From Candidatus Altiarchaeota archaeon (lineage in GTDB: Archaea; Altiarchaeota; Altiarchaeia; IMC4; SCGC-AAA252-I15), in contig JBDRLL010000028.1 of the NCBI GenBank assembly GCA_043813075.1, forward strand, positions 1-28,291: 28,291 bases of DNA. The letters run 5' to 3'. How positions within the stretch are numbered: position 1 is the stretch's first letter; each line of letters opens with the position of its first letter. The position numbers were made by a program, and so were the translations under genes. The notes beneath the pieces were generated by a model, which did no database searches, had not been told where the DNA came from, and saw nothing but the letters and a program-made list of their open reading frames with translations. Below are positions 1,350 through 28,291 of this stretch, piece by piece.

Positions 1350-1357
1350 ACCACGCT

Positions 1358-2725
1358 TCAGACAAGATATCCTATCTCCTTAAGCCGCTTCTCCACGTCA
1401 ACACTGTACTCCACCTCATTAACAGGATTAGAGTCATTAGCCATTAAGAGAAAACCAGACATCAGTCCCTTAAGATCATCGGCGGCACCAGGGTTTACGG
1501 CATACACGTTCCTCAACTCCCTAGGGTCGGAAGCCAGGTCAAACAACTCCCACCTGACATCATCGCCTGACGCGTCAGGCCAGAAGACAAGTTTAAGCCC
1601 CTTATACCTCAAAGCCCTCTGGTCTGGAGCATACATCGGGTGTATAGCCTCGCTATATACGACAAGGTCTTCATTACGCACCCCAGCCAACACTGGTATG
1701 AGAGTCTCCCCACCATACCCATTATATGGTATGTCGAGTGTGTCTAGGATTGTCGGTGGTATATCAACCTCCCTCACCTGGTATGGCACCCTGACCCCAG
1801 TAATCGACGGTATCCTCATGAAAAGTGGGACGTGTATAAGCTCGTCGTAATGAGTGTGGCCATGATCGCACCCCCCGTGATCCTGGAATTCCTCGCCATG
1901 ATCCCCGACAACAATGATTATCGTCTTATTGTACAGGCCAAGCTCCTTGACGCCGTCTATAAGGCCTCCAATATGCTCGTCCGCGAAACGTATCTCCCCG
2001 TCATAAAGCGCAGTAAGGTACTCCACCTCCTTTGGTGTGTAGACAGTCTCCTTGCATATGCCCCTGCTCGTCGCATAGTATTTTTCTGGAATGTCCTTTA
2101 TGAAAAGGGAGTCATAACCCTCCTGCGGGTTGTAGGGCTGGTGCGGCTCGTTATAATGAAGCCATATGAGGAACTTCTCATTCCTGTGGGCGCGCATGAA
2201 GTTGATTGTCTGCTGCCTGAAGCCGTCAGCCCTCCCTCCAGGCCCGCGTTCAACGAATCCCTGGCTAAAGCCGAGGTCAGCCAGCGGGAACCACGCGTTA
2301 TAGTTGTAGTATGTGTAGTACCCGTTCTCGGATAGTGTCTCCGCCAGAGTCTTAACATTATCATTGAGAGCCACCCTCGGACCGACAAGGCCATGCTGGC
2401 TGGGATACAATGAGGATAATATGGATGCGAGGGAGGGGAGAGTCCATGGCGACTGGACGAACGCCTTATCGAACTGTATGTTCTCCCGCCCGAACTCGTC
2501 CAGCCGGGGGGTTATGTTCCGGTGATACCCGTTTGACGTCACATGGTCCGCCCTGAACGTCTCCACCGTCAAGATTATGACGTTACAGTCAACGCACTTA
2601 TAGTCCACTCCAACATCCCATACACGAGTAGTGGTCGTCTTCCCCTTGGATGAGGGCGGTTCTGAAATGCATGCGACAGACAGCAAAACAACCGTGAATA
2701 GCATGAAACACGTCCTTGAAGCCAT
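1358..2725 (-). CDS. Exported/anchored sulfatase-like enzyme (alkaline phosphatase superfamily) with Thr at the nucleophile position
   Basis: NVIILTVETFRADH, SPWTLPSLASILSSLYP, HYNEPHQPY, YDGEI, GDHGEEF, HGH, HVPL, ELFDL..DP.E and C-terminal RLKEIGY. N-terminal hydrophobic segment. Start placed at ATG 2725 (AAGGTG RBS upstream); ORF track start is 2764. Confidence 0.88.
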   Translation of the reverse strand: MASRTCFMLFTVVLLSVACISEPPSSKGKTTTTRVWDVGVDYKCVDCNVIILTVETFRADHVTSNGYHRNITPRLDEFGRENIQFDKAFVQSPWTLPSLASILSSLYPSQHGLVGPRVALNDNVKTLAETLSENGYYTYYNYNAWFPLADLGFSQGFVERGPGGRADGFRQQTINFMRAHRNEKFLIWLHYNEPHQPYNPQEGYDSLFIKDIPEKYYATSRGICKETVYTPKEVEYLTALYDGEIRFADEHIGGLIDGVKELGLYNKTIIIVVGDHGEEFQDHGGCDHGHTHYDELIHVPLFMRIPSITGVRVPYQVREVDIPPTILDTLDIPYNGYGGETLIPVLAGVRNEDLVVYSEAIHPMYAPDQRALRYKGLKLVFWPDASGDDVRWELFDLASDPRELRNVYAVNPGAADDLKGLMSGFLLMANDSNPVNEVEYSVDVEKRLKEIGYLV

Positions 2726-2751
2726 GAAAACACCTTGAGAGACTAAGAATA

Positions 2752-3498
2752 CTATTTTACACACATGTCTTTAAAATCCACTCCAACATTAGGGCACGCG
2801 CACAATGATTTAACATCACCATAAGTGTTCAAAAGCCCGTTAATGCAAGACAGGTTATATTCCCCTGCCGCATTGCATTTCGAAACCAGTGCGCATGGAG
2901 TCGAGCCTCCGGAAGACCCTAAACGAAGGCCTATATGATGGAAACAATAGTCCACTGGAGCCTGAGAGACGCTAGAGTAATCATCCCTAACCCTACCACA
3001 GAAATCAAAGGCAGATGCAATACTACGCTGGGAGACTATGTCAGACAGGTGGCCTATGCAGTCGTGCTCGAACCCGCCGCTCATCCTGCATGAGTCGTAG
3101 GCGTGCCCGTAGTCTGTATAAGCGTTGGCAAGTGCCTCCGCTGACTTGAAGAAGCATTCATCACGCCAGACACCATCGAGGATAGCGCACACGTCGGACG
3201 CCGTCTTCCTGCCAACGGAATCCTCTGGCTTATTGAATATGGCGAACACCGCAACATCAGTCATACAGTGACCCCTTACATTTTCACGCCCTATCTGGAG
3301 ACAGTATGAGACAGACTTGTTCGCCTCATGGCGTGTGAAAGAGGACTTACGGTATAGGCAGTAGTCCAGATACTCTGCGGGAAATTCGTCACAAACTGGG
3401 TTAAGCTCCTGGCGGCCTGCACCAGACATCAAGTGCATAGAATAGTAGGTGGCCGCCAAAAGTACTGCAGCCAACAGCACGTACATCCTACAGCCCAT
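2752..3498 (-). CDS. Membrane-anchored Cys-pair repeat protein of unknown function
   Basis: N-terminal TM helix followed by about six Cys-pair units, mostly C-x9-11-C. Start placed at ATG 3498 (GAAGGTGA RBS); ORF track start is TTG 3516. Confidence 0.75.
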   Translation of the reverse strand: MGCRMYVLLAAVLLAATYYSMHLMSGAGRQELNPVCDEFPAEYLDYCLYRKSSFTRHEANKSVSYCLQIGRENVRGHCMTDVAVFAIFNKPEDSVGRKTASDVCAILDGVWRDECFFKSAEALANAYTDYGHAYDSCRMSGGFEHDCIGHLSDIVSQRSIASAFDFCGRVRDDYSSVSQAPVDYCFHHIGLRLGSSGGSTPCALVSKCNAAGEYNLSCINGLLNTYGDVKSLCACPNVGVDFKDMCVK

Positions 3499-3502
3499 AG
3501 AG

Positions 3503-3931
3503 TTATTCACCTTCAATCACACTCCGGAACAGGAATGGCCTCCCGATTTCATCATAGCAGGACGAGCGCAGTCCGTCATGCCCTATCTTATCGCACAATG
3601 ACCTGAGTTTCTCTGACAACTGCGCGTATCCCCGCGGCACACCCCTGTTCTTAATGTAGTAGCTGACGAGTATGTCATGCACCATCTCGTAGTTGCACGC
3701 GTCCCTTATGACGGGTTCGGAGACGATCTCGCAATACTTCTCGGACCGCTCAGGGTCTGACAGCACAATGCCTGCTGAAGCCTGTGAGATACACGCGTCC
3801 CCCTCCAACGCAACAGCCACATCATCGCATTCGACAGGCCTCGCCTGGAGCGACACGAGCAGATAGTACAATATGAATGCCAAAAGAAGGCCTGCTGCCA
3901 TGAGGTATATCCCACCATCATTACGTCTCAT
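3503..3931 (-). CDS. Small membrane-anchored Cys-pair repeat protein of unknown function
   Basis: N-terminal TM helix and three C-x11-C units. Purine-rich GGTGATGGGAGAGG directly upstream of the ATG. Confidence 0.75.
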   Translation of the reverse strand: MRRNDGGIYLMAAGLLLAFILYYLLVSLQARPVECDDVAVALEGDACISQASAGIVLSDPERSEKYCEIVSEPVIRDACNYEMVHDILVSYYIKNRGVPRGYAQLSEKLRSLCDKIGHDGLRSSCYDEIGRPFLFRSVIEGE

Positions 3932-3952
3932 CCTCTCCCATCACCAACGTTT

Positions 3953-5533
3953 TTAAGGTATCCTCCAGACCTGAACCCCAGAACGTTTTATCTTCTTTAG
4001 GTTGTCTGGCACATGGTCTAGCGAGTCGAACTCCATAACCCACTTGGAGGGTATCCTGACCAGGCAGCTCTTCTTTGACTTGTAACGCTGAAGGGATGAC
4101 AAGTCCTCGTAGACGACATAGGCGTTGAAGCTTTCCTGACAGTCTATAAGCTCTATGCGTATGAAATCCAAGTCAAGGTCACTGCCATGATATATCCTCA
4201 TGAAGTTATAAACGTCAAAGTCCGCGTAATAGAAGCCGGACTTGCCCTTAAGGAAATCGTATGCTAGGCGGTAGCCGATAATCCTGGAATTATCGAAGAC
4301 CCATAAGGCATGGGTGACGTAGAGCGAGCTCGAAACAAGTGACAGTAAGAGTATAACCGCTGTTATCCTATGGAAAGTGCTCTTGCGTAAGAATTCCACT
4401 ATCATGCGGGACACCATTATGGAGGCTGCAGGCAGCAGTATGGATATGAACCTACCGTCCTTGTGGATCATCTTCCATTCTGTTATGCTCTGAGTGCCAA
4501 AGTTTAGGTAGATTGCGAGGACTATGAACCATAGTAGAATCATAGTGTCCTTAGACGAACGCTTATACAAGAGGTATATCAGGGAGAGTAACATGTAGAA
4601 CCCGAAGAACCCGAAGAGAGGGGCATCCACAAAACCGAACTTGCTTGTGAAATGGGTCAGCTCGAATTCAAGAGTCTTCTTGTTTATGCCGAATAGTATT
4701 GAAGGGTAAACTAGAAGGTCGTTCCAATTCGCAGTCTCATCATAGAAGAGTATGTTTGCAGCCAGGTTACGGATGGTGCCGACATTATAGTAGGAGAATA
4801 CTGCGACCTGGAGGAGGACCATCATGCAGAATCCAAGCGCGAAGGAGGCGGGAGCATAACCTATCCTACGCTCCTTTAGGATGTAGTACAACACCATTGA
4901 CGACGCGAAGACGACGAATATCATGGCCGTGACCTTTACCAGAAACGCCAGTCCAGTCGCGAGTCCTGAAAGGAGGAATAAGAAGTGTCTGTTCCCACGG
5001 TCCCTGACGCCCAGGAAAAGGAAATACGCTGCGAGAGAAGTGTAGAACTCGAGGGGTACGTCAGGCATGTACCAGCTGGCCCAGAGAATGTTGAAGGGCA
5101 CGACACCAACTATGAGAGAGGAGAGGAGAGATGTCCACTCATCATAGAATATCCGGGATATCCTGTACACCAGGGGTATAAGCAATATCGAGCAGAGCAT
5201 CGACTGGGATACGACAGCCATCTCGCTGAGGCCGAATATTTTTATGGCGAACATGGGTGGGAAGTACATGAGTATCCGGCTGCCGTAGACGCCAGCCAAC
5301 TGTTTTTTAGGCTGGAAGCCATCCAACAGATTGACAAGCCGGTTCATGTAGACTGGAGTGTCGCTTAGGTTCAAGCCGACGAAGAAGTACATTCGGAGTA
5401 ACACATTCAACAGGATTATCAGTATGAGCAATACGTGGACTTTGTTCTTAACCATGAAGTCAAATGGGCCTGGAGTCAGGGTCCTCTTCTTGCTCACACC
5501 ACCACTCTTCTTTACCACGTAAACCCCCTCCAC
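3953..5533 (-). CDS. GT-C fold polytopic glycosyltransferase (PMT_2/ArnT-like)
   Basis: Many TM helices with LR....G...D..Y after TM1, 'WYMPDVP', 'GLAFLVK' and 'KDGRF..ILLP' motifs and a soluble C-terminal domain. Alternative start GTG 5518 after GGAGGGGG. Confidence 0.8.
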   Translation of the reverse strand: MEGVYVVKKSGGVSKKRTLTPGPFDFMVKNKVHVLLILIILLNVLLRMYFFVGLNLSDTPVYMNRLVNLLDGFQPKKQLAGVYGSRILMYFPPMFAIKIFGLSEMAVVSQSMLCSILLIPLVYRISRIFYDEWTSLLSSLIVGVVPFNILWASWYMPDVPLEFYTSLAAYFLFLGVRDRGNRHFLFLLSGLATGLAFLVKVTAMIFVVFASSMVLYYILKERRIGYAPASFALGFCMMVLLQVAVFSYYNVGTIRNLAANILFYDETANWNDLLVYPSILFGINKKTLEFELTHFTSKFGFVDAPLFGFFGFYMLLSLIYLLYKRSSKDTMILLWFIVLAIYLNFGTQSITEWKMIHKDGRFISILLPAASIMVSRMIVEFLRKSTFHRITAVILLLSLVSSSLYVTHALWVFDNSRIIGYRLAYDFLKGKSGFYYADFDVYNFMRIYHGSDLDLDFIRIELIDCQESFNAYVVYEDLSSLQRYKSKKSCLVRIPSKWVMEFDSLDHVPDNLKKIKRSGVQVWRIP

Positions 5534-5582
5534 TAACTATGAAACCTATTTTACTTATTCATAGTAGTATAGTTATTAAGAT
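5534..5582. promoter_or_regulatory. AT-rich divergent promoter region between the GT-C operon and the radical SAM gene
   Basis: 49-bp AT-rich gap between divergent starts; exact TATA boxes not resolvable by eye. Confidence 0.45.
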
Positions 5583-7070
5583 ATGAAAAAAGATGTCGTC
5601 CTAGTCTTCCCTAAGACAAGCCAGGACATCGGTGGATCAATTTCGGCACCATTCAGCGTGCTCACCATAGCGGCGCCACTGAAGGAGGATGGATACAACA
5701 TAAGGATCATAGACCAGCGGATAGAATCCGACTGGAGGACTACTCTTGAAAAGGAAGTGAGACAGCACCCGACATGCGTTGGAGTATCGAGCATGACTGG
5801 ATTCCAGATACACTATGCATTAGAGGCTGTGAATCTGGTGAAAGACACATCCCCAGACACGAAGGTTGTGTTCGGAGGCATACACGCGTCCATAATGCCT
5901 GAGCAATCACTGAAGACTTCGAGTATAGACTACGTGGTCCGGAACGAGGGGGAGGCGACATTCAGGGAGCTGGTGAACGCCCTAGAGAATGACTCGAGCG
6001 TATCGAACATAAACGGCCTCACATACAAGTCTGGTGAAAAGATCATCAGCAACCAGGACAGGGAGTTCATAAAACTGGATGACATGCCGCCAACCCCGTG
6101 GGAGCTTATAGACGCGGATAGATACATACACAAGGTTGTGATAATGGGCGACAGCGGCAGGGAGATGGACATAGGAGAGACCACGCGTGGATGCCCATTC
6201 AACTGTAGGTTCTGCTACAACGCACTGCACCATAAGAGATGCTGGAGGAGCATGAGTGTTGAAAAAACAGTAGAGATGATAAAAAATGCCGTCGACAAGT
6301 TCAAACTGGACGCGATATGGCTGAGGGACGACAACTTCTTCGTTGACTTCAAACGCGTTGAAGGAATAGCTGAAAGCATGGTAAATGAGAAGATGGACGT
6401 GAGATGGTATACTTCAGGCATAAGGATAGATCTCTTCAACGGGATGGATGAGAACATGATTAAACTGCTGAAGAAGAGCGGGTGCGACAGCTTCAGGTTT
6501 GGGGTGGAGTCAGGATCACAGCGGATACTCGACCTCATAGGGAAAAACATCCGGGTTGAGGAGGTTGTGGCAGCGAACGACAGGTGCAGGAAGCACGGGC
6601 TGACCCCCCACTACTCATACATGTGCGGTTTCCCTACCGAGACGGTCGATGACATAATGAAAACCGTCCACCTAGCCATGAAACTCAAGAAGGATAATCC
6701 AGATGGAAAGATGCATCCCATAAACGTCTACGCACCATACCCTGGCACAGAATTATACGCCCTCTGCCTTAAGGAGGGACTCACCCCACCAAAGTCCCTG
6801 GAGGAGTGGAGCCATATAGACTGGATGAGCAAGGACCCCCGCTTCCTATCATACCTAAGTGAGGAGGTCTTTGAGACAGCTAACAGCGTATCTAATCTTT
6901 CGTACTTCGTTTCAGACGCAGTCAGGATGGTGCTGCCAGACTACGTTAAGATGCTCGCACTCCCAATCCTATTGTGGTCTGACTTCAGGTGGAACCATAG
7001 AATCTACGCGCAAGACTATGAGATGTGGCTGTTCAGGAAGATAGTGGACAAGGTGCTTGGAAAGGACTAG
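5583..7070 (+). CDS. Cobalamin (B12)-binding radical SAM protein (class B methyltransferase/BchE-like superfamily)
   Basis: N-terminal B12-binding domain (VGVSSMT, VFGGIHAS, NEGE), then TRGCPFNCRFC (CxxxCxxC), DDNF, GVESGS, GFPTET and PYPGT. Confidence 0.92.
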   Translation: MKKDVVLVFPKTSQDIGGSISAPFSVLTIAAPLKEDGYNIRIIDQRIESDWRTTLEKEVRQHPTCVGVSSMTGFQIHYALEAVNLVKDTSPDTKVVFGGIHASIMPEQSLKTSSIDYVVRNEGEATFRELVNALENDSSVSNINGLTYKSGEKIISNQDREFIKLDDMPPTPWELIDADRYIHKVVIMGDSGREMDIGETTRGCPFNCRFCYNALHHKRCWRSMSVEKTVEMIKNAVDKFKLDAIWLRDDNFFVDFKRVEGIAESMVNEKMDVRWYTSGIRIDLFNGMDENMIKLLKKSGCDSFRFGVESGSQRILDLIGKNIRVEEVVAANDRCRKHGLTPHYSYMCGFPTETVDDIMKTVHLAMKLKKDNPDGKMHPINVYAPYPGTELYALCLKEGLTPPKSLEEWSHIDWMSKDPRFLSYLSEEVFETANSVSNLSYFVSDAVRMVLPDYVKMLALPILLWSDFRWNHRIYAQDYEMWLFRKIVDKVLGKD

Positions 7071-7735
7071 CCAGACAATTCAGTGAATATCCGCTTCAGA
7101 ATAATCCAGCCATCGCTGATGGTCTCCAGCTTGCCTTCACCAGATTTCCTAGGGCATTCAAAGCTTGGAACCTCAAGTATCCTCAGCCTGTTCTTAGCAG
7201 CCTTTATTGATATCTCAGTCTCTATGCCAAAACCATTTTCAGTCAAATCAAGCTTCTCCACCACGCCCTTTCGGAAAGACCGGTAGCCGTAGCATAAGTC
7301 AGAATAGTTGGTATGCCATATCATGTTAACAAGCCAGACGAAAAACATGTTGCCCATCTTCCGGACTATGCTTATGTCCTCACTACCACCACCCTGTATG
7401 AAGCGGGAGCCCATGCAAATGTCGAACCCAGCCTCAATGCCAGCAATCAAGAGTATCAGCTCGCTGGACATGTGGGAGCAGTCAGCATCCATCATTATTA
7501 TTATGTCACCGGAAGCCGCGCCCAAACCCGTTCGTAGGGCGGAACCCTTACCCTTAGCGTCATACAACACCCTACACCCATGGCTCTCAGCAACTTCAAC
7601 AGTCCTGTCTGAAGAATGCCCGTCCACAACCAGGATCTCATCAACATAGTCAGGCAGGCTGCCCAACACGCTCGACAGGTTATGCTCTTCATTAAGGGTG
7701 GGGATTATAACTGAAATCGAATTTCCGTTCAACAT
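7067..7735 (-). CDS. Glycosyltransferase family 2, DPM1-like polyprenol-phosphate glycosyltransferase
   Basis: SVIIPTLNEE, VVDGHSSDRT, GKGSAL, MDAD (DxD), GSRF, SD..YGYR and FGIETEI. Start placed at ATG 7735 just after the trpS stop; ORF track start is GTG 7744. Confidence 0.92.
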   Translation of the reverse strand: MLNGNSISVIIPTLNEEHNLSSVLGSLPDYVDEILVVDGHSSDRTVEVAESHGCRVLYDAKGKGSALRTGLGAASGDIIIMMDADCSHMSSELILLIAGIEAGFDICMGSRFIQGGGSEDISIVRKMGNMFFVWLVNMIWHTNYSDLCYGYRSFRKGVVEKLDLTENGFGIETEISIKAAKNRLRILEVPSFECPRKSGEGKLETISDGWIILKRIFTELSG

Positions 7736-7736
7736 C

Positions 7737-8843
7737 CTAAACACTACCCACTATTTTAGACGCGGTCTCGCGGGCCTTCACCAGCTTGGCCTGATGCTTC
7801 ACCAGGAATTTCCGTACAAGTTCCGCGCAATTCTTCTTGTCGTCCCCGCACATCAGCTTCCCGGACCTGCATTCATGGTATATGCGCGACAACTCAATGT
7901 CATCGTCAATCAGGTGATACAAGTACAGCTCGTAGACGACACACTTCTCAGGCTCCCCTCCAATCCTCTTCTGCTCCTCCAGCGTCTCCCTCCCACCAGT
8001 CTTGGCACGCATCACCTTCCCAGCGGCCTCATCAGGGTCGTCGGTCAACGCGATATAACTCTTAGTGTTGCTGGAGCTCATTTTACCGCCCTCCAGGCCC
8101 TGCATGAACTTGTGGTACGTGGCGGATGGAGGAATGCACTTGAAGTCAGAGCCCCCGTCACGGTCCGCTGACAGGCGTGATGCAATATCCCTGGTCAGCC
8201 GGATGTGGGGGTCCTGGTCGACGCCGACGGGAACCACGACTGGCCGGGGGCCTCCGAAGCATTCCAATTGGGGGTGGAGTATGTCGGCGACCTGCGTTAG
8301 GACTGATATTATCTTGCCGGGTGACAGTTCCCCGTATATCGCCTTGAGTTCGTTGAAAGTGACCCTCTTGGACGCCATGTCCCTGAGACGGTAGAACTCT
8401 GTTATGTAGTCGCTTTGAAACCAGAAGTGGAAGTTCTTGCGCTTCAGGCCGAGGGCGAAGTAGTTGGCGAGATACTCCTCCAACGCTATCCTCCTCGCTT
8501 CCACAAATCCTATGTCCCGCATGAGATAACTCTCCATGTCCGCGGCACACACGAACACGTCAGCCCTCTTCTCCTGGAACCATATTATCTCTTCAGCCAC
8601 CATCTTATGGCCGAAATGGAATTTACCGGAAGGCATGAGCCCGGTCATCATCGCGTAAGGCCTGCTATTACTGATTGATTCGACGATGCTGCTAAAGTCC
8701 CTGTGGCCGAATATAACGCCCCTCCGGACGTACTTGAACTCGTCCAGGACCTTACGGTACTTCTCTATCGAGTCTATCCCAAAGTCTTCCATAAGCTTCC
8801 CATAGTCCCCCACGTCCGAGATTGCCCAGGGATCCATGTTCAT
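7737..8843 (-). CDS. trpS: Tryptophan--tRNA ligase (archaeal type)
   Basis: TGLMPSGKFHFGH (HIGH-like), QVADIL, VPVGVDQDPH, KMSSS, AKTGGR and CGDDK. Confidence 0.97.
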   Translation of the reverse strand: MNMDPWAISDVGDYGKLMEDFGIDSIEKYRKVLDEFKYVRRGVIFGHRDFSSIVESISNSRPYAMMTGLMPSGKFHFGHKMVAEEIIWFQEKRADVFVCAADMESYLMRDIGFVEARRIALEEYLANYFALGLKRKNFHFWFQSDYITEFYRLRDMASKRVTFNELKAIYGELSPGKIISVLTQVADILHPQLECFGGPRPVVVPVGVDQDPHIRLTRDIASRLSADRDGGSDFKCIPPSATYHKFMQGLEGGKMSSSNTKSYIALTDDPDEAAGKVMRAKTGGRETLEEQKRIGGEPEKCVVYELYLYHLIDDDIELSRIYHECRSGKLMCGDDKKNCAELVRKFLVKHQAKLVKARETASKIVGSV

Positions 8844-9127: not shown

Positions 9128-9209
9128 ATATAAGATATTTGTGTATTATTTAGAATATATAGTTGGGTGGGATAGAGTGTATTCTCTGGATGCTCTAGAG
9201 AGGGGGTAT

Positions 9210-10343
9210 ATGAAGTTGCGTTATTTTCTGGAAGCACAAGAAAGGGAGTACATTAGATTATACCCCATAATCAGGTTCATACTAGCATGGTTCATATCCA
9301 CAAGGATTATGTTGAGTGTTATAGGAACCTGGTCCCGCATAATATTCCATAAGACGACCAGAACATACTCCCAACACGTTTGGCTCGACATCTGGGGAGT
9401 GTGGGACTCGAAATGGTATTTGGACATAGCGAAAAACGGGTATAGCCTTGCGGTAAGAGACCGTTTCGGGTCTGTGAACGTCGCATTCTTCCCATTCTAC
9501 TCCACGCTAATCAAGCTTCTGGAACGCCTGGTGGGGGACTACTTTATCTCCGGGCTAATCATCTCCAACATATGCCTGATCATAGCATGCATCTTCCTGT
9601 ACAAGCTATCCAGGCTAGACTACGACGAGGAGACTGCATTAAACTCAGTCAAATACCTGTTCCTATTCCCGACAGCATTCATCTATTCAGGAGTCTTCAC
9701 GGAGTCGACATACCTCGCGCTAGTCCTAACGTGCATGTACTATGCCAGAAGAGAAAAATGGGTTATAGTAGGAGTATTAGGGTACTTCACGGCGTTAACA
9801 AAAGCATTTGGCGTCCTCATCATCCTGCCACTACTCTACGAATACTTTAAGTCGATAGGATTCGACTGGCGGAAGATTCGGAAAAACATTCTGCTAATGG
9901 CTTTAATACCGCTGGGACTGTCAACCCTCATGTACTACCACCACCAAACATTCGACAAGCCGATCGTATTCATGGAAGTACAATCCACATGGGGGCGGCA
10001 TCTCGCCAACCCGTTAACGACACTGGCCGCAGAACTGAAGTCCAAGGATGAGGTAAGACGCTTTGAATCCTACTTCTGGATAGCGACCATGCTGATTTTA
10101 ATATCCTTCTGGAGGAAAATCCGGTTTTCATACCTCATATTATCGATGTATACGCTAGTGGGGCCCCTAATCACTGGGACGGTGTGGAGTATGCCGAGAT
10201 TCGCACTGGTCGTATTCCCGATGTACATGATATTCGCGATAATATCGAGGGGAAGACGAATGGAGGCCATACTAGCAACATCCATGCTGCTACAAGGGTT
10301 CCTGATGGGCTTGTGGGCCATAGGATTAAGGATAATAGTATGA
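9210..10343 (+). CDS. PIG-V-like (Mannosyl_trans2) GT-C mannosyltransferase
   Basis: WDSKWYLDIAKNGY, AFFPFY, LFLFPTAF...TES, Q..WGR and SMPRF motifs; multiple TM helices. Start placed at ATG 9210 after GAGAGGGGG; ORF track start is 9141. Confidence 0.85.
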   Translation: MKLRYFLEAQEREYIRLYPIIRFILAWFISTRIMLSVIGTWSRIIFHKTTRTYSQHVWLDIWGVWDSKWYLDIAKNGYSLAVRDRFGSVNVAFFPFYSTLIKLLERLVGDYFISGLIISNICLIIACIFLYKLSRLDYDEETALNSVKYLFLFPTAFIYSGVFTESTYLALVLTCMYYARREKWVIVGVLGYFTALTKAFGVLIILPLLYEYFKSIGFDWRKIRKNILLMALIPLGLSTLMYYHHQTFDKPIVFMEVQSTWGRHLANPLTTLAAELKSKDEVRRFESYFWIATMLILISFWRKIRFSYLILSMYTLVGPLITGTVWSMPRFALVVFPMYMIFAIISRGRRMEAILATSMLLQGFLMGLWAIGLRIIV

Positions 10344-12908: not shown

Positions 12909-13847
12909 TCACTTGAGAAGTGTTAGCCTGGCCAGCAGGGCTTCAAGCTGTATCCTCTCGTTAGCCCCCTCAACAAGGGTGAAGTTCGCCTCGCCAACCA
13001 AGTCGATTATGCACACCTTCTTCTTGTCGTCAGCATCCAAGTTGAATGCCTCGCGGTTCATCTGCAAGAGTATGTCCTCTCCAGAGAGGCCGTAGTTGAG
13101 CATGAGCTCATCGAGAATCTTCCGCGCATCAATGAATTTCCCCGCCAACGCGGTGGCCATGAGATTCTTTATGTCTTCCGGACGGGCCCGGGTGGTTATG
13201 GAGTAGACGTTTTCATCGTTAACCTCCCCCAATGCCGCGGCACTCTGGAGTATGTTTATCGCACGGCGTATATCACCCTCCGAAACGTAGAGTATCGCAT
13301 CAATGCCCTTAGCGTCTGACTTGACGCCCTCCTTCTTCAGTATTTCAAGCAGGTGCTTCTTGACCTTGTCGGAAGGAACCCTTGTGAAGCGGAATATGGC
13401 GCACCTGCTCTGCAGGGGCTCTATTATCTTGCTGGAATAATTGCAGCTCAATATGAACCTGCAGGTCGTGGTGTAACGCTCCATCGTACGGCGCAAAGCA
13501 TTCTGAGCATCGGATGTGAGGGAATCAGACTCATCGAGGAAGATTATCTTAAAGTCACCGGACAAAGGCTTGGTCCTAGCGAAATCCTTTATCTTGCTCC
13601 GCACGACGTCGATGCCACGCTCGTCGCTCGCATTCAACTCCAGGAAATCATAGCCCAACTCACCGAACAACTCACGGGCAATACAAGTGGCTGCCGTAGT
13701 CTTGCCAACGCCCGCCGGCCCCGCGAACATCAAGTGCGGCATGCTCCTAGACTTCACGTAAGCCTGAAGACGGTCCACCGCAGAATCCTGGCCCACAATA
13801 TCCGCAAGCTTCTGTGGCCGATATTTCTCAGTCCAAGGTAATTCCAT
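12909..13847 (-). CDS. rfcS: Replication factor C small subunit
   Basis: PWTEKYRP, GPAGVGKTT (Walker A), ELNASDERGIDVVR, LDESD, AQNALRRTME and QSRC; no intein. Confidence 0.97.
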   Translation of the reverse strand: MELPWTEKYRPQKLADIVGQDSAVDRLQAYVKSRSMPHLMFAGPAGVGKTTAATCIARELFGELGYDFLELNASDERGIDVVRSKIKDFARTKPLSGDFKIIFLDESDSLTSDAQNALRRTMERYTTTCRFILSCNYSSKIIEPLQSRCAIFRFTRVPSDKVKKHLLEILKKEGVKSDAKGIDAILYVSEGDIRRAINILQSAAALGEVNDENVYSITTRARPEDIKNLMATALAGKFIDARKILDELMLNYGLSGEDILLQMNREAFNLDADDKKKVCIIDLVGEANFTLVEGANERIQLEALLARLTLLK

Positions 13848-14031: not shown

Positions 14032-17000
14032 ATGGCTGTAGGGCAGGTTGGGGAATACAATCCAGTCGAGCTGGAAGAGAGGATACTCGCATACTGGAAG
14101 CAGAACAAGGTTATGGAGGAGACCCTCAGCCGGCATGAAGGCAGGAAGCTGTTCTCCTTCCTGGAAGGCCCTCCGACAGCCAACGCCCCGCCCGCACTCC
14201 ACCACGTGGAAGTGCGAGTCTTCAAGGACCTGGTGAACAGATTCCACTACATGAGGGGGTATGACGTACCCCGGAAGGCGGGATGGGATTGCCATGGGCT
14301 GCCTGTGGAAGTGCAGGTGGAGAAGGAGCTGGGCTTGAAGAGCAAGAAGGATATTTTAGACTATGGTGTAGACAAGTTCGTGGAAAAATGCAGGGACAGC
14401 GTCTTCAGCCACATAAAGGAGTGGGACGCCCTCACAGAGAGGATGGCGTACTGGATAGACTTAGGGAGGCCGTACGTCACCATGGACAACGACTACATAG
14501 AGAGCGTCTGGTGGTCCCTCAAGCAGCTATGGGATAAGAAGCTGCTGTATGAAGGATACCGTGTCGTCCCATACTGCGCGAGATGCGGGACTCCGCTGTC
14601 AAGCCATGAGGTTGCGCAGGGATACAAGAACGTTAAGGAGACGACCGTTATAGTCGCATTCAGGGCTAAGGACAAGGACTACAGCCTGCTCGCGTGGACT
14701 ACAACACCTTGGACCCTGTTGTCTAACCTTGCTCTCGCAGTCAATCCGGAAGTGGATTACGTCACCATAAAGCATCACGGCGAAAAATACGTCCTAGCCA
14801 AAAGCATAGCTGAAACACGATTCAAGGATGCTGAAGTGATAGGTGAATTCAAGGGTAAGGAGCTTGTTGGCGTGGAATACCACCCATTGTTCAGCCACTT
14901 CATCGGAAAACTAGAAAAACCCGCGTGGCGGGTCATAACGGGAGGATTCGTTACTACTGAGGAGGGTACGGGCATCGTCCACATCGCACCCGCCTTCGGT
15001 GAAGACGACTACAACGTGGGGCTTGAAAACGACCTGCCGCTAGTCAACCCCATAGAAGACGACGGGAAGTTCGGGGAAGCCATACCAGAGTTGAAGGGGG
15101 TTTTCGCCAAGGACGCTGACGAGAGGATAATCCAGATGCTTGATGACATGGGCCTGCTGGTGGCGAAATACCCGTACGAGCACGACTACCCGTTCTGCTG
15201 GAGGTGCAAGACACCACTACTCTACTATGCAATGAAATCCTGGTTCATAAGGGTAAGCTCGCTGACAGACAAGCTGCTGGAGAAGAACAACGAGATAAGC
15301 TGGTATCCGGAACACATAAGGGAAGGCAGGTTCGGGAACTGGGTCGCCAACGCCCGTGACTGGGGGCTGTCGAGGAACCGGTTCTGGGGCACACCCCTCC
15401 CCATATGGAAGTGCGTTGAATGTGGTGAAACCCAGGCCATAGGATCCAGGAAAGAACTGAAGGAAAAGGCTATTGTGGATGTGGGCGACGACATAGACCT
15501 GCACAGGCCGCACGTCGACGGGATCGTCTTTAAATGCGGTTGCGGCGGAGAGATGAGGAGGGTTGAATATGTGATAGACTGCTGGTATGATTCCGGCTCC
15601 GCGACATACGCGCAACTACACTACCCGTTCGAGAACAAAAAGCTATTCAACGAGTACTCACCCTACGACTTCATTTCAGAGGCGACAGACCAGACGCGCG
15701 GCTGGTTCTACACGCTCCTAGTCCTGTCTGCCATACTCTTCGACAAGCCAGCATACCGGAAATGTGTCGTGGGAGGGCTTCTGCTGGACGACAACGGGGA
15801 GAAGATGAGCAAGAGCAACAGCAACATCATAGACCCGTGGGAGCTGTTCAACAAGACGGGCGCCGACGCAGTCAGACTGCAGATGTGCTCGCAGGCACCG
15901 TGGAACGCCAGGAGATTCGGTGCAGAAAGCATGGGGGAGATGGTGCTGCCACTGCTCAGGACCCTATGGAACTGCTACCACTTCACTGTCAGATACATGA
16001 TGCTAGACGACTTCGACCCCAGACAACACGAAATCACGGAGTGCAATCTAGAGCTTGAGGACGACTGGATACTGAACGCGACAAACCAGACCATATCTAA
16101 TGTGACAAAAAACCTTAACGACAACAACTTCCACACCGCACTATATGAGATAAACAACCACATAGTGGAAGACCTGTCGCGATGGTACATAAAGCTAATA
16201 AGAGACAGGCTATGGCTCGAAGACAAAGAAGGGGGCATAAACCCCTCGAAGAAGGCGGCCTACATGACCCTCAGCAAAGTCTTCGAGAAGACTTGCCTTA
16301 TGATGGCGCCGCTCGCGCCATTCATCACAGAGGAGATTTACCAGAACCTCCTGAAGAAAGACGTTGCAAGCATACACCACATGCCATGGCCTATGCCGGA
16401 GGAAGTGGATGATGGGATGATCTCTGGCATGAACACGGCCAGGAAGATTGTGGAGGCAGGCAGCAACTGCAGGCAGCAGGCGGGCATAAAACTGAGATAC
16501 CCCATAGCAAAGGCGACGATAGTCGGCGGTGAGAAGATAAGGGAGGCTGTGGAGTCTATGAGGGAGGTGGTGTCCAAGCAACTAAACGCCAAGGAGGTAG
16601 AATACGTCAATGAGATGAGGGGGGTGAGATACATCGCCTCCCCAGACTACAGCAGGATAGGGCCGGAATATGGGGGCAAAGCGAATCAGGTGGCGGAGGC
16701 CATAAGGAAAAACCCACTGGAAGCCAAGAGCATACTGGAGGGGGGCGATGCATCGGACATGGGGGGTTTCAAGGTTACTGCAGACATGATATCAGAGGTT
16801 AGGATAGAGGTTCCTGAGAGATACAAGGCCAGTGAATTCAAGTCAGGAGACCATAATGGGATAGTGTTCATAGAGACGGAACGCAGCCAAAGCCTGTTAA
16901 ACGAGGCTCTTGCAAGGGACTTAATCAGGAACATACAGGAGTTGAGGAAGAAGAACAACCTGGAGGAAATGCAGCGGATAAACGTGAAAGCCTCGAAAAC

Positions 17001-17148
17001 AGGTGATATGGAGGCTATGATGTCTGAATTCGAGGGTTTGGTGCTTAGTGAGACCCGGTGTGATGCCATAGAGCTCGTGGAAGGGCTTGAGACAGGCCAC
17101 GGATTCACATATGAAGGCTCTAAGATAGGTGTTGAAATCTCTTTTTAA
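14032..17148 (+). CDS. ileS: Isoleucine--tRNA ligase, type 2, with non-canonical ALHH signature
   Basis: EGPPTAN..ALHH, GWDCHGLPVE, WTTTPWTL and GTGIVH (CP1 editing domain), DWGLSRNRFWGTPLP, DQTRGWF, KMSKS and WYIKLIRDR. Confidence 0.97.
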   Translation: MAVGQVGEYNPVELEERILAYWKQNKVMEETLSRHEGRKLFSFLEGPPTANAPPALHHVEVRVFKDLVNRFHYMRGYDVPRKAGWDCHGLPVEVQVEKELGLKSKKDILDYGVDKFVEKCRDSVFSHIKEWDALTERMAYWIDLGRPYVTMDNDYIESVWWSLKQLWDKKLLYEGYRVVPYCARCGTPLSSHEVAQGYKNVKETTVIVAFRAKDKDYSLLAWTTTPWTLLSNLALAVNPEVDYVTIKHHGEKYVLAKSIAETRFKDAEVIGEFKGKELVGVEYHPLFSHFIGKLEKPAWRVITGGFVTTEEGTGIVHIAPAFGEDDYNVGLENDLPLVNPIEDDGKFGEAIPELKGVFAKDADERIIQMLDDMGLLVAKYPYEHDYPFCWRCKTPLLYYAMKSWFIRVSSLTDKLLEKNNEISWYPEHIREGRFGNWVANARDWGLSRNRFWGTPLPIWKCVECGETQAIGSRKELKEKAIVDVGDDIDLHRPHVDGIVFKCGCGGEMRRVEYVIDCWYDSGSATYAQLHYPFENKKLFNEYSPYDFISEATDQTRGWFYTLLVLSAILFDKPAYRKCVVGGLLLDDNGEKMSKSNSNIIDPWELFNKTGADAVRLQMCSQAPWNARRFGAESMGEMVLPLLRTLWNCYHFTVRYMMLDDFDPRQHEITECNLELEDDWILNATNQTISNVTKNLNDNNFHTALYEINNHIVEDLSRWYIKLIRDRLWLEDKEGGINPSKKAAYMTLSKVFEKTCLMMAPLAPFITEEIYQNLLKKDVASIHHMPWPMPEEVDDGMISGMNTARKIVEAGSNCRQQAGIKLRYPIAKATIVGGEKIREAVESMREVVSKQLNAKEVEYVNEMRGVRYIASPDYSRIGPEYGGKANQVAEAIRKNPLEAKSILEGGDASDMGGFKVTADMISEVRIEVPERYKASEFKSGDHNGIVFIETERSQSLLNEALARDLIRNIQELRKKNNLEEMQRINVKASKTGDMEAMMSEFEGLVLSETRCDAIELVEGLETGHGFTYEGSKIGVEISF

Positions 17149-17191: not shown

Positions 17192-17476
17192 ATGAAGGGT
17201 TCTAGCGGATATAGACGGCGCACGCGAAACCTTAAGGTAGGTTTGCGGGAGAGGGGGAAGGTTAAGATAAGGCGCAGGCTAACCGAGTTTGAGGAGAACC
17301 AGGATGTTTCTATAAAGATAGATCCAAGCTACCAGAAGATGCCGCACCCACGGTTCAAGGGCAGGACAGGGAAAGTAGTCGGCAGACAAGGCAGATCCTA
17401 CTTCGTCAAGATAATCGACGGGGGAAAGACAAAGAAGATACTGGTGCAGCCAGAGCACCTGAATAAAGTGGGGTAA
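17192..17476 (+). CDS. rpl21e: 50S ribosomal protein L21e
   Basis: S.GYRRRTR, IKIDPS, MPHPRFKGRTG.V...GR.Y and PEHL; conserved order rpl21e-rpoF-DUF655. Confidence 0.97.
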   Translation: MKGSSGYRRRTRNLKVGLRERGKVKIRRRLTEFEENQDVSIKIDPSYQKMPHPRFKGRTGKVVGRQGRSYFVKIIDGGKTKKILVQPEHLNKVG

Positions 17477-17480
17477 AGCA

Positions 17481-17825
17481 ATGGACGTTCTAGAAGAGAA
17501 GCCAGTGACACTGGCAACGGTAGAGTCGATACTCAAAAAGAAGGAGAAGGAGTATAAGGAGGGGGAGATAGAGCTTTCATACGAGCAGAGGAGGGCTCTA
17601 GAGCATTCATCCAAGTTCAAGCACCTGAACGTCAAGGACTCCGAGAAGCTGGGCAAGGAATTGGCAGGTGTCGGCCTGGACCTTAGTGAAGAGAGGGTGG
17701 TTAAGATAATAGACTTGATGCCTGAGACAGTGGATGATGTGAGGGCGATTTTCGCTAAAGAAAGGTTCAAGTACACTGAGGAAGACATCAAGAAGATAAC
17801 AGACCTTGTGGCACAATACCGCTAA
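17481..17825 (+). CDS. rpo4: DNA-directed RNA polymerase subunit Rpo4 (RpoF)
   Basis: LSYEQRRALEH..KF and VKIIDLMPET.DDVRAIF; syntenic position after rpl21e. Confidence 0.95.
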   Translation: MDVLEEKPVTLATVESILKKKEKEYKEGEIELSYEQRRALEHSSKFKHLNVKDSEKLGKELAGVGLDLSEERVVKIIDLMPETVDDVRAIFAKERFKYTEEDIKKITDLVAQYR

Positions 17826-17830
17826 AGGGG

Positions 17831-18406
17831 GTGGTGGCTTTGAAAAGAGACGATAACGTCAGAATACTGGATTATCTACCAAAAGGCAAGTCCGACGTGC
17901 CACCGCACAAGCGTAAGCCGGTGGCGCAAGCGGTTGGGACCAAATACTTCTCGCTGCTAGAGTTAAGCCCAAGAGAGGGTGTTACGCTGGAGCAGGGAGC
18001 CCCAGAATACATAGGGGAGGGGTCGAGGGAGAAGATAGACCACATAGAGAGGAGGATAAAATACGACTGGCTAACGCCAACTGCAAAGTCAGAGCTGCCG
18101 GTAGTGCTCACAGACATAGTCAATGAAGACGAGGAAAGGTTCATAAACTTCTACAACACCGCAGGGTCGATAAGCACCAGACAGCACAAGCTGGAATGCC
18201 TCCCGAAGATAGGCAAGAGACATAGGGAGGAGATACTGATGGAGAGGGAGATACAGCCGTTCAAAGACTTTGAGGACATGCGTTCACGAGTAAAAAACAC
18301 TCCAGACCCGGTCAAGGTCATAGTCGACAAGATAGTGGAAGAACTGAAGGGGGAAAGCAAATACTACCTGTTCGTGCCCTTATTCGAAGAAACGAGAAGA
18401 AGATAA
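17831..18406 (+). CDS. DUF655 family putative RNA-binding protein
   Basis: ILDYLP.G, AQAVG..YF.LLE, YIGEG.R.KI, F.N.A..IS.R.H.LE.LP.IGK (HhH) and PF..F; follows rpoF as in many archaea. Confidence 0.92.
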   Translation: MVALKRDDNVRILDYLPKGKSDVPPHKRKPVAQAVGTKYFSLLELSPREGVTLEQGAPEYIGEGSREKIDHIERRIKYDWLTPTAKSELPVVLTDIVNEDEERFINFYNTAGSISTRQHKLECLPKIGKRHREEILMEREIQPFKDFEDMRSRVKNTPDPVKVIVDKIVEELKGESKYYLFVPLFEETRRR

Positions 18407-20629: not shown

Positions 20630-22813
20630 TTAACAGTCTGTTAGCTCATACTCGTGGCCGACCACCTTGAATATCAGGCACCTCCTGTTGGGGAAGTTCC
20701 TGAGTGAGAATTCCCGGACATCCCCCGTTTCACCCACCATGTTGAGTATTACCACATCATCGTCGAAATTCATGCCAGCAAGGTTAGAGCCGGTTATGTA
20801 GTCGGGTATGAAACGCGCGAATACAACCGCATTCTCCTCGTTCTCGTGTATCTCCTTGAACATTTTCACCAGCCTGGTGTCTATGCCATGCTGCCCGGAG
20901 TTGAGAGCCATGTTAGAGTGCAGGTAGATTAATGACGAGACAGCGCAAGCCAACACGATTATTGTGAGGAACTTGTAGTTGGAGTGCAGGACCTCGACCT
21001 TCGTGAAAGACCTGACCGTCAGCAGGAGTATTATCGGCATCAGCTCGTAGTAATAGCGTGGACCGAAGAACTTGCAGTGGTAGTAGTATATGAAGTAGCC
21101 GAATATAGTGATCATTATTATGGACGAGAATAGATAGTCGACCACATCCTTCTTGTAGAAGAAGAGGAAGAATAGGAAGGCTATGTATAGCAGGCCGATC
21201 CCGCCGAACAGTGAGTCATCCAGCATGCTAAGGCTTATGTAAGTGTTCAAAAAGCCTTTTTCCACGGTATGGCCCCGTGATTCAAATGACATTAGAGGCT
21301 TTCCAGCCCCCATGTGGAAGCCGGGCAGCTCGCTCTCATTGTACTCTTGGAATGGGGTTTTGAGCATGTTACCGGTCACCAGGTAGTTGTAGCCGAGGAA
21401 CATTATGAGCATCACGCTGAATGAAGCAGCAAAGGGTATCAGCTTCTCCAGGGTTATCTTCCTGGACCATAAGGCGTGTAGTATGAAGGGTATTAAAAAC
21501 AGAACTAGATTGTATATCCTTATGTTCAGAAGCAGTCCAAGGGAAAGCCCGGCGAGTAGGGGGTAGAAGTCGCCTTTATTCTTTATTGACTTCATGTAGG
21601 CGAGTAGGAACAGGATGTAGCTCAGCATTGCAAGAGTATTATTCATGTAGGACGAGCTCATTAGTATAGACCATGGACTCACCGCCATCAGGAGGGCAGT
21701 GTAGAACGCAAGACGACGGTCATTGAACACCTCCAGGCCCAGATAGAAGAGGGCGACGACAGCGAGACCCCCGATGATGGGATTTACCATGAATGACGCC
21801 TTCAAATATTCGCCGATGGCAAGCAGGAGGGGGAAGGCCACCAGATACTTCCCGTAAACCCGTTTACCGTGTATGGCGAGGAAGTTCCCCGCGTTCCGGA
21901 GGTACACGAAATCTCTTGAAAGCGAGTATGAGCTGTCTATTGCGGGATCGCTTATGGAGTATATGAAGAACTTGCCGTTTAGGATGAGTTTCGCCTGCAA
22001 CAATTGTGTTACACCGTCCGGAGTGTGGGGCATTGCGCCGAGGAGATAATATCCGAAAACAGCCGAAGGGGTGACGGTGAAGACAAACAATAGGGGGACT
22101 AGTAGGATGTTCCTGCTGAGTATATTCACCCGCATAGAGAAGATGAAGAAAACAACTGCCGCAACAGCAATGGACTTAACTAGAGCTATCAGGTAGTAGC
22201 GGTATATCGACCCGTTCACGTAGAAGTAGTAATGGAATGAGCGAAACCCATTCCCCCTGACTGTAGACCAGACCTGCGAGGCATCATACATTATTTTTAT
22301 CTTAGTCTCATTGCGTGTTATGAACTCCGCAGGTATTGTGAATATCTGATCCTTGAAATAGTGTATGTCCTCAGGACCCCACACGAAGAAATCCCCGACA
22401 CGCTTCCCATCAGCGAATACGGTTAGCACGAGATTGGTATTTGTGACGTCATACCTCTTTACCATGACTAAATCCTTGCCCGGAACACTCTTGACGTAGA
22501 ACAGCTCGTTCCAGTCATACTCGTACACTATCTTATGGTTGTCGTAGTAACTCTTGTTGCCAGGGTAATACAAGACAGTATACTGGCTGTTGAAGAGGTT
22601 CCTAGGCCAATAGTAGTGGGTTACCTCACTCCATACGCTGCCGACGTCAACAGAATCTATCGGAACAACACCATCAAGGCCGGGGGGTATGTATCCTGGA
22701 GACAGCATATAGAAGACTATAAGGAAGGCTAGTGCTGACGCCATCACCTCCGCCCTCATCAGACTGGACGGCGAGAAACCGGGTTTTTTAAACCCGTTGC
22801 GCCTCAGAGACAT
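20630..22813 (-). CDS. Large GT-C fold glycosyltransferase with an extra N-terminal extracytoplasmic domain
   Basis: TM helix, then an aromatic beta-rich domain, then a GT-C core (TPD....QAK, KY...FPLLLA, NPIIG, SSSYMNN, NIR.YN, YNY..TG....TPF, GPRYYYE). Confidence 0.78.
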   Translation of the reverse strand: MSLRRNGFKKPGFSPSSLMRAEVMASALAFLIVFYMLSPGYIPPGLDGVVPIDSVDVGSVWSEVTHYYWPRNLFNSQYTVLYYPGNKSYYDNHKIVYEYDWNELFYVKSVPGKDLVMVKRYDVTNTNLVLTVFADGKRVGDFFVWGPEDIHYFKDQIFTIPAEFITRNETKIKIMYDASQVWSTVRGNGFRSFHYYFYVNGSIYRYYLIALVKSIAVAAVVFFIFSMRVNILSRNILLVPLLFVFTVTPSAVFGYYLLGAMPHTPDGVTQLLQAKLILNGKFFIYSISDPAIDSSYSLSRDFVYLRNAGNFLAIHGKRVYGKYLVAFPLLLAIGEYLKASFMVNPIIGGLAVVALFYLGLEVFNDRRLAFYTALLMAVSPWSILMSSSYMNNTLAMLSYILFLLAYMKSIKNKGDFYPLLAGLSLGLLLNIRIYNLVLFLIPFILHALWSRKITLEKLIPFAASFSVMLIMFLGYNYLVTGNMLKTPFQEYNESELPGFHMGAGKPLMSFESRGHTVEKGFLNTYISLSMLDDSLFGGIGLLYIAFLFFLFFYKKDVVDYLFSSIIMITIFGYFIYYYHCKFFGPRYYYELMPIILLLTVRSFTKVEVLHSNYKFLTIIVLACAVSSLIYLHSNMALNSGQHGIDTRLVKMFKEIHENEENAVVFARFIPDYITGSNLAGMNFDDDVVILNMVGETGDVREFSLRNFPNRRCLIFKVVGHEYELTDC

Positions 22814-28220: not shown

Positions 28221-28291
28221 GGGCCTGTAGCCTAGTGGATAGGGCGACAGCCTTCTAAGCTGTAGACCGTGGGTTCGAATCCCACCAGGCC
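28221..28291 (+). tRNA. tRNA-Arg (anticodon TCT), intronless, 3' end cut by the window edge
   Basis: Acceptor GGGCCTG/CAGGCC(C), D arm GCCT-AGTGGATA-GGGC with A20 Arg identity element, anticodon arm ACAGC-CTTCTAA-GCTGT (TCT at 28254-28256), T arm GTGGG-TTCGAAT-CCCAC. Confidence 0.96.

Follow-up and report, generated by a model that had tools for sequence, protein, structure and literature searches.

How does an archaeal isoleucyl-tRNA synthetase (IleRS) come to carry ALHH at the place of the class I signature H-x-G-H, and is such an enzyme the working copy of its cell? The question is raised by ileS, the gene of a type-2 (HUP-2) IleRS of 1038 amino acids, recognized by TIGR00392, Pfam and genome searches at positions 14032-17148 (plus strand) of a 28,291-nucleotide stretch of DNA from a Candidatus Altiarchaeota archaeon (contig JBDRLL010000028.1, assembly GCA_043813075.1). 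This whole stretch is called the window below. The evidence makes it probable that ileS encodes a single, working, housekeeping type-2 IleRS with an ALHH signature, and that the gene was acquired in place from an archaeal IleRS2 clade shared with DPANN lineages.

The signature-motif region, which reads GPPTANAPPALHH in the translation of the open reading frame (ORF), comprises residues 46-58 (14167-14205, plus strand). Within it the swapped class I signature ALHH is formed by residues 55-58, encoded by the codons GCA CTC CAC CAC (14194-14205, plus strand). Compared with H-x-G-H, alanine stands at the position of the usual first histidine and histidine at that of the usual glycine. In a PDB search with the first 130 residues, ALHH matched column by column and without gaps the HVGH of Thermus thermophilus IleRS (1ile) and of Priestia megaterium IleRS2 (PmIleRS2, 8c8u), as well as GVHH (8c8w), i.e. 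A55-L56-H57-H58 is in register with HXGH. The threonine-rich CP1 editing-site motif WTTTPWT (residues 222-228, 14695-14715), the second CP1 editing-site motif GTGIVHIAPAFGEDD (residues 312-326, 14965-15009) and the KMSKS loop (residues 591-595, 15802-15816) are all present on the same strand. In an alignment of 22 IleRS2-clade sequences (A1) the residues W222, T223-T225, P226, W227 and T228 were invariant, and so were G314, H317, A319, G323 and D326 of the second editing motif and K591, M592 and S593 of the loop. Re-reading of the ORF showed that the earlier note on this DNA had described ALHH in its GPPTANAPP context exactly, and its statement that KMSKS and the CP1 editing motifs are intact agrees with the invariance of the key positions in A1.

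The product scored 915.6 bits against the TIGR00392 equivalog (cut-off 621.4), which identifies it as an isoleucyl-tRNA synthetase. Pfam matches were obtained to tRNA-synt_1, Anticodon_1 and DUF5915 (PF19302, residues 845-1036, 71.8 bits), the last of which marks a type-2 C-terminus. In keeping with this organisation, the enzyme has no C-terminal zinc-binding domain of the IleRS1 type. Among the PDB matches (best E = 1e-254) the full-length alignment to PmIleRS2 spans residues 12-1023; the scores were 841-851 bits to four PmIleRS2 chains, 791 bits to T. thermophilus IleRS, 605-692 bits to eukaryotic-type/cytoplasmic IleRS and 267-320 bits to IleRS1 structures. Since the PmIleRS2 and T. thermophilus scores far exceed the IleRS1 scores, the enzyme is assigned to type 2, and judged from its sequence it is an IleRS2 with a HUP-2 catalytic domain, placed inside the IleRS2 clade (see below). 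Two other assignments were tried and rejected. The MupA and MupB models (NF000257, NF000258) gave 849.5 and 818.1 bits, below their 1900-bit cut-off, and membership in IleRS-A (HUP-1) is contradicted by the ALHH motif and by the branches with support 99-100 that separate the enzyme from the IleRS-A-like clade.

One could suspect that ALHH is an artefact of sequencing or assembly, or that it marks a decaying gene. The genome (1.80 Mb, 89% complete) is indeed a draft in 41 contigs, but the other observations leave this explanation a next to negligible probability. The degenerate pattern GPPTAN-xx-P-[A/G]-x-HH was found once each in 23 of the 61 genomes of the phylum, written in varied synonymous codons, and the reversed pattern, searched as a control, gave 0 matches. 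A consensus error at 14194-14205, which according to the earlier note would have removed the observation, is excluded by this variety of codons. A public DNA contig covering 14005-14303 has 0 differences, including the motif site, although it possibly comes from the source sample and is then not independent. Against decay speaks the full-length open frame, with the catalytic and editing motifs all in place.

A survey of the motif across the 61 genomes of the phylum showed ALHH to be fixed in three families: f1 (21 of 21 genomes, our own included), f3 (2 of 2) and f4 (1 of 1). The f4 genome (G023), the 24th with ALHH, was missed by the exact pattern because the motif region of its locus L021 reads GPPTPNAPPALHH. 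ALHH genomes were not found in f2, f6 and f7 (0 of 1 each), f5 (0 of 22), f8 (0 of 4) and f9 (0 of 8). In these other families HIGH, HVGH, HLGH or HMGH was present at all 15 loci whose N-terminus was read (nine from f5, two from f9 and one each from f2, f6, f7 and f8), and their IleRS are only 36-42% identical to the ALHH enzyme. The motif region was covered in 118 of the 120 best database homologues, the other two being N-terminally truncated and lacking it. All 118 had x-x-H-H, distributed as 73 ALHH, 41 GLHH, 2 GIHH, 1 CLHH and 1 LLHH. The CLHH and LLHH sequences, P0035 and P0052, are Altiarchaeales-clade homologues; their existence shows that signature position 1 is not limited to glycine or alanine once histidine is at position 3. 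At one f3 locus (L137, G022:C51, about 4561-7666) the reading frame of the ALHH-type ileS is interrupted close to residue 100: tblastn found two segments in different frames with stops inside the match, and the gene call P0055 starts past the motif. Either a true frameshift or a fault of the assembly may account for the break.

Genome searches detected one ileS; the remaining matches were ValRS, LeuRS and, weakly, other class I synthetases, and no second ileS was found in the 89%-complete genome. The gene is flanked by those of the replication factor C (RFC) small subunit, rpl21e, rpoF and AspRS. The view that the ALHH enzyme is the housekeeping IleRS, held also in the earlier note, is supported by the single copy and by these core-gene neighbours. 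Close homologues come from sources named Candidatus Altiarchaeota or Altiarchaeales. One relative (G017) contains a second IleRS fragment (L172, C238:1-2681), which most likely represents bin contamination because it is 51-52% identical to Chloroflexota IleRS2 and lies on a 2.7-kb contig.

The position of the gene is informative about its history. The left boundary of the slot is the gene of the RFC small subunit (RFCs; 12909-13847, minus strand; Pfam Rep_fac_C and AAA). The right boundary is rpl21e, encoding the 94-residue ribosomal protein L21e (17192-17476, plus strand; PF01157, 90.3 bits), followed on the same strand by rpoF, the gene of the Rpb4-like RNA polymerase subunit F (17481-17825; PF03874 and synteny), and by a DUF655 gene of the conserved downstream cluster (17831-18406; PF04919, 203.7 bits, and synteny). 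The rpl21e-rpoF-DUF655 arrangement is the usual archaeal cluster. The order RFCs(-) / ileS(+) / rpl21e / rpoF / DUF655 was found at the f1 loci L007-L010, L012, L017, L019 and L020 and at the f4 locus L021, and the f1 locus L011 has the RFCs flank only. Both flanks are the same around the canonical ileS of the f5 loci L030, L031 and L032, and parts of the slot were seen at further f5 loci: the downstream flank at L033 and L034, RFCs at L043 and L044, and the downstream flank with a gap at L139. Thus rpl21e is kept beside both ileS types. Between f1 and f5 the identities are 72-78% for RFCs, about 59-69% for L21e, 54-62% for Rpb4 and 63-71% for DUF655, as compared with 37-40% for ileS. Taking into account that the canonical and the swapped ileS occupy the same slot in f5 and f1, these data indicate that a resident IleRS-A-type gene was replaced in place by the ALHH IleRS2.

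Some details of the slot vary. Two f1 loci contain extra DNA, L141 (G001:C3) about 4.2 kb between RFCs and ileS, and L140 (G007:C53) about 2.4 kb between RFCs and ileS and about 1.1 kb between ileS and rpl21e. A stretch of 332 bp that at first looked like a spacer separating ileS from rpoF was considered as a site for relics of the old gene and rejected; the region is the rpl21e gene, which lies below the 100-amino-acid ORF cut-off applied at first. For the 184 bp between RFC and ileS no similarity to the other loci compared could be detected. The slot flanks were absent at archaeal IleRS2 loci of other phyla (L052, L096, L108, L120 and L129).

To follow the direction of the exchange, elongation factor 2 (EF-2) was used as species marker because ValRS and LeuRS are mosaic in the phylum. 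In the EF-2 tree of 38 genomes f9, f8, f6 and (f2, f7) branch successively outside a crown, which consists of an f5 clade (support 97) and of f1, f3 and f4 in no resolved order. All lineages outside the crown have the canonical IleRS type. In the IleRS-A subtree Altiarchaeota form one clade with f8 basal and with the branching order of the EF-2 tree (f2, f5, f6, f7 and f8 are represented in the 181-row tree described below; f6 is absent from the 79-row tree). The most parsimonious history would be that the ancestor of the crown had IleRS-A in the slot and that the stem of f1, f3 and f4 replaced it once. One may also imagine the reverse, namely that the ALHH IleRS2 was ancestral in Altiarchaeales and that f5 and others gained canonical IleRS-A later. 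The shared slot alone gives no direction and the EF-2 crown is a polytomy, both of which leave room for this order of events, but it is made quite unlikely by the occurrence of IleRS-A in f2, f5, f6, f7 and f8 and of a related type in f9, by the single IleRS-A clade with its f8 base, and by the canonical state of every lineage outside the crown. After the presumed replacement the gene seems to have stayed with its hosts: the order of branches within the ALHH clade is broadly that of the EF-2 tree, which fits vertical descent after acquisition, and the G+C content of ileS (0.51-0.55, flanks 0.49-0.56) carries no foreign signature, consistent with an old event.

The origin of the incoming gene was approached with three trees, a FastTree tree of 181 rows and two IQ-TREE trees, one under LG+G4 (79 rows, 1026 columns) and one under LG+C10+G4 (41 rows, 1016 columns). 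In all three, IleRS2 forms one clade (support 99-100), inside which the Altiarchaeales ALHH and the DPANN G/ALHH sequences form a common clade with support 100. In both IQ-TREE trees the remaining IleRS2 together are the sister group of this common clade, which in the FastTree tree belongs to a basal polytomy of IleRS2. To its counterparts in f1, f3 and f4 the enzyme is 56-75% identical. The next matches, at 45-53% identity, are Woesearchaeota, Nanoarchaeota and Aenigmatarchaeota by name and have GPPTANAPP-G/A-L-HH; out of 1.84 billion representatives, an identity above 51% or a score above 900 bits was reached by two clusters only, the Altiarchaeales and the DPANN one. The canonical Altiarchaeota enzymes are found in another deep group, together with archaeal HxGT (IleRS-A-like) sequences, a group corresponding to the IleRS-A clade of PMC13752280.

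Vertical descent from an archaeal IleRS, with HIGH mutated to ALHH in the lineage, has in its favour that the host is an archaeon, and nothing else. In approximately unbiased (AU) tests with the 79-row alignment (LG+G4, fast constrained searches) one clade of all Altiarchaeota IleRS was rejected with p = 1.5e-53 (difference in log likelihood 449). Moreover, identity to the IleRS of the neighbouring families is 37-42% as against 54-80% for the flanking genes, and IleRS-A enzymes do not tolerate the swap, which inactivates them (PMC13752280). We regard such a descent as highly improbable. The earlier note had allowed for transfer as well as for independent evolution of the motif in this archaeon; the rejection of vertical nesting supports the view that ileS is not the original archaeal IleRS of the lineage, and the second idea has to be given up, as ALHH was brought in by the acquired gene and is found in the DPANN sister clade too.

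A source considered in the note was a bacterial-clade IleRS2. The type is supported, the clade is not: all 19 named bacterial sequences and 11 unnamed representatives form one separate clade (support 99-100), outside which the Altiarchaeales enzyme falls. Four of the 11 unnamed representatives carry H[Y/F]GH, which we take to be a eukaryote-like signature. Around the bacterial clade stand IleRS2 of archaea, by name Hodarchaeales, Promethearchaeota, Heimdallarchaeota, Poseidoniia/'Methanobacteriota archaeon' and Halobacteriota. GPPTAN and DQTRGWF, cited as bacterial-clade markers, are invariant (the alanine nearly so) over the 22 sequences of A1, whose members named elsewhere in the analysis are mostly archaeal; being invariant in a largely archaeal-named IleRS2 set, they are not diagnostic of bacteria.

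Transfer from a bacterium, e.g. of the ALHH-bearing Deinococcus type, can nevertheless draw on several observations. The four signature residues are the same as in D. radiodurans IleRS2 (DrIleRS2; PMC10485003), the N-terminal part matches T. thermophilus IleRS best in the PDB (137.5 bits), the close homologue P0105 is labelled 'MAG: bacterium' at its source, and union with the whole bacterial/eukaryote-like clade was not rejected in the AU test (p = 0.34). On the other hand, the clade of all 19 named bacterial rows, with support 100, excludes the enzyme, and in the best tree under the bacterial-union constraint the Altiarchaeales + DPANN clade is sister to all 30 rows rather than nested among them. 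Union with the Actinomycetota/Chloroflexota GxHH clade, which includes the ALHH representative P0145, was rejected (p = 0.0017), and the nearest relatives are the Woesearchaeota, Nanoarchaeota and Aenigmatarchaeota sequences mentioned above, other representative clusters staying at or below 51% identity. With the bacterial sequences sampled in the trees, transfer from a bacterium therefore appears very unlikely, and these comparisons do not support a bacterial-clade IleRS2 in Altiarchaeales.

Several points weigh against acquisition in place from the archaeal clade. The slot flanks were not found at the f2, f3, f6, f7 and f9 loci within the DNA fetched, and f1, f3 and f4 form a polytomy with f5 in the EF-2 tree, so that a single replacement is no more than the most parsimonious reading. 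The IQ-TREE supports, those of the C10 tree included, are Shimodaira-Hasegawa-like approximate likelihood ratio values from fast searches, and the trees contain no Deinococcus or Thermus sequence and thus no direct comparison with DrIleRS2. At the base of IleRS2, the position as sister to all other members is the maximum-likelihood placement, but a position as sister to the bacterial clade was not rejected (p = 0.34). Finally, in PMC13752280 the only archaeal IleRS2 assayed, from Diapherotrites, is canonical, and one archaeal IleRS-A was unexpectedly resistant.

In spite of these points we favour the following course of events. The ancestor of f1, f3 and f4 would have exchanged its IleRS-A-type gene with canonical HIGH for an IleRS2 gene, which took over the slot bounded by the gene of the RFC small subunit on one side and by rpl21e-rpoF-DUF655 on the other. 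The newcomer would belong to the archaeal IleRS2 clade with fixed A/G-L-H-H that is shared with Woesearchaeota, Nanoarchaeota and Aenigmatarchaeota, and it would have been inherited vertically afterwards. In the enzyme His57, at motif position 3, may supply the imidazole that interacts with the transition state of isoleucine activation and that normally comes from the first histidine. By analogy with bacterial enzymes, the HUP-2 scaffold with its shifted helix tip would leave room for the His57 side chain beside the adenine, and the bulky histidine may clash with mupirocin-like inhibitors as a by-product.

The analogy is based on structural and kinetic work on bacterial IleRS2 (PMC10485003). 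There the tip of the signature helix is shifted, so that a histidine at position 3 fits without displacing the adenine, and N-epsilon of this third-position histidine occupies the place of N-epsilon of the canonical first histidine. DrIleRS2, naturally ALHH, was as efficient as canonical IleRS2. Its Ki for mupirocin was 6.6 mM, that of the HVGH revertant was 8.1 uM, 823-fold lower, and modelling indicated a clash of the third-position histidine with mupirocin. The literature basis given in the earlier note, ALHH in D. radiodurans IleRS2 and hyper-resistance, was therefore correct. The Altiarchaeales enzyme is likely, but not certain, to be a poor binder of mupirocin-like inhibitors if the analogy holds; since one IleRS-A was unexpectedly resistant (see above), the resistance phenotype is not fully predictable from the clade.

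Enzymes of the G/AXHH type of IleRS2 are an already described kind, to which the Altiarchaeales enzyme is an archaeal addition rather than a new kind of enzyme. With the bacterial representatives (D. radiodurans ALHH and S. griseus; Brkic et al. 2023, PMC10485003) it shares HUP-2, the type-2 C-terminus, KMSKS and the swap at positions 1 and 3; the four residues are identical to those of DrIleRS2, and the bacterial enzymes are housekeeping as well. It differs from them in its archaeal host, in its position, which each of the three trees puts outside the IleRS2 clade of bacteria, and in the context GPPTANAPP, which is GPPTANG-x-P in most bacterial sequences. The measurements of kinetics and inhibition come from the bacterial enzymes. 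The Diapherotrites enzyme DaIleRS2, described with a three-clade scheme in October 2026 (PMC13752280), is likewise an archaeal IleRS2 (HUP-2), but it is naturally canonical and its swap was engineered, whereas the Altiarchaeales swap is natural and fixed in a whole clade. According to the same work the swapped motif is confined to HUP-2 and archaea possess IleRS2. A term search of its main text and four supplementary files turned up no mention of Altiarchaeota or of natural swapped motifs in archaea; Fig. 1D and the Zenodo data may mark such leaves. A literature search combining Altiarchaeota, aminoacyl-tRNA synthetase and horizontal gene transfer yielded only general papers, as far as titles and the beginnings of abstracts tell. 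The IleRS-A (HUP-1) enzymes of f2, f5, f6, f7 and f8 have the same function, a C-terminus of similar type and, in f5, the same slot; they are about 37-42% identical to the ALHH enzyme, have the canonical HIGH, HVGH or HLGH and fall into another deep clade.

Gene displacement in situ by a xenologue was reportedly described by Omelchenko et al. in 2003. The present case is similar in that an essential gene was replaced by a distant homologue between conserved neighbours. Here the gene encodes an aminoacyl-tRNA synthetase of class I, it lies between the divergently oriented RFCs and rpl21e, and the setting is an archaeal phylum; IleRS2 loci on the donor side do not share the Altiarchaeales flanks.

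Two other class Ia synthetases of the genome, encoded outside the window, were compared with those of the phylum. The ValRS (G000:C22:39720-42125; L046/L142) is likewise of foreign type: it shares 64-70% identity with ValRS that bear the names Woesearchaeota, Nanoarchaeota or Nanoarchaeia and is 66-80% identical to that of most f1 and f3 genomes, but only 40-49% identical to that of f2, f4-f9 and the f1 genomes G006 and G007. These values point to a second class Ia replacement, of more recent date, with the same kind of partner lineage. The LeuRS (G000:C22:46999-49923; L047) is 62-72% identical to that of part of f1, 68% to f3, 65% to f4 and 55-63% to f9; the values are 45-51% for f5, f6, f7 and ten other f1 genomes and 40-43% for f8. 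From these identities class Ia synthetases seem to have been exchanged often in the phylum.

Further neighbours of ileS are a phosphoglucomutase-family gene and the genes of AspRS, TruD, a Trp/Tyr-type aminoacyl-tRNA synthetase, PurH, FolD and SHMT. Elsewhere in the window Pfam matches reveal an envelope/glycosylation-type gene cluster (402-7744, 9141-10343 and 20630-22813), with a metallo-beta-lactamase fold, a sulfatase, three PMT_2-family glycosyltransferases, a GT2 glycosyltransferase and a B12-binding radical SAM protein. The tRNA and Rfam scans detected no RNA gene near ileS; they identified a tRNA-Arg (anticodon TCT; 28221-28291, plus strand) that is cut by the window end.

What remains to be considered is the age of the swap. 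On the 79-row tree the canonical and the swapped state change at least 7 times, 6 of these changes being within IleRS2. Position 1 is A, G, C or L in the Altiarchaeales and DPANN homologues. Swapped GIHH/GVHH is found in L120, L129, P0133, P0135 and P0126, which by name are Poseidoniia/'Methanobacteriota archaeon', Promethearchaeia and Halobacteriota, and these archaeal sequences lie in separate parts of the tree. In the phylum of the Woesearchaeota genome G061 the exact pattern is patchy, being present in 32 of 401 sampled genomes. The repeated changes, the tolerant position 1 and the scattered archaeal occurrence fit a state which the HUP-2 scaffold allows freely and which is possibly very old; they indicate no selecting cause. 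For IleRS2 as a whole, an ancient origin of the swapped signature is hinted at. A further-reaching version, in which the A/G-L-H-H clade is the earliest branch of IleRS2, the swap is ancient and class Ia genes, those of IleRS, of ValRS and apparently of LeuRS, pass between Altiarchaeales and Woesearchaeota-like archaea and displace the resident gene in its slot, is put forward tentatively, and we would sooner doubt it than accept it. If it were true, the swap would be ancestral in IleRS2 or older than any mupirocin producer, a matter of permission by the scaffold and not of adaptation to an antibiotic, and sister families would differ in having HUP-1 or HUP-2 enzymes within an otherwise conserved context.

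It was in IleRS2 of bacteria that the swapped signature was described, and it was taken there for an adaptation to mupirocin. An explanation by the antibiotic only is weakened by the finding that uncultured archaea carry the swap in fixed form in an essential enzyme, and that it is fixed throughout an archaeal clade at or near the base of IleRS2. The Altiarchaeales and DPANN sequences offer natural enzymes for probing how HUP-2 tolerates the swap. Moreover, canonical IleRS-A and swapped IleRS2 between the same neighbours constitute a rare matched pair for comparisons of catalytic rate, fidelity and inhibitor sensitivity, and the locus would be a clear instance of an essential synthetase displaced in place, which may inform the study of how essential translation genes are displaced.

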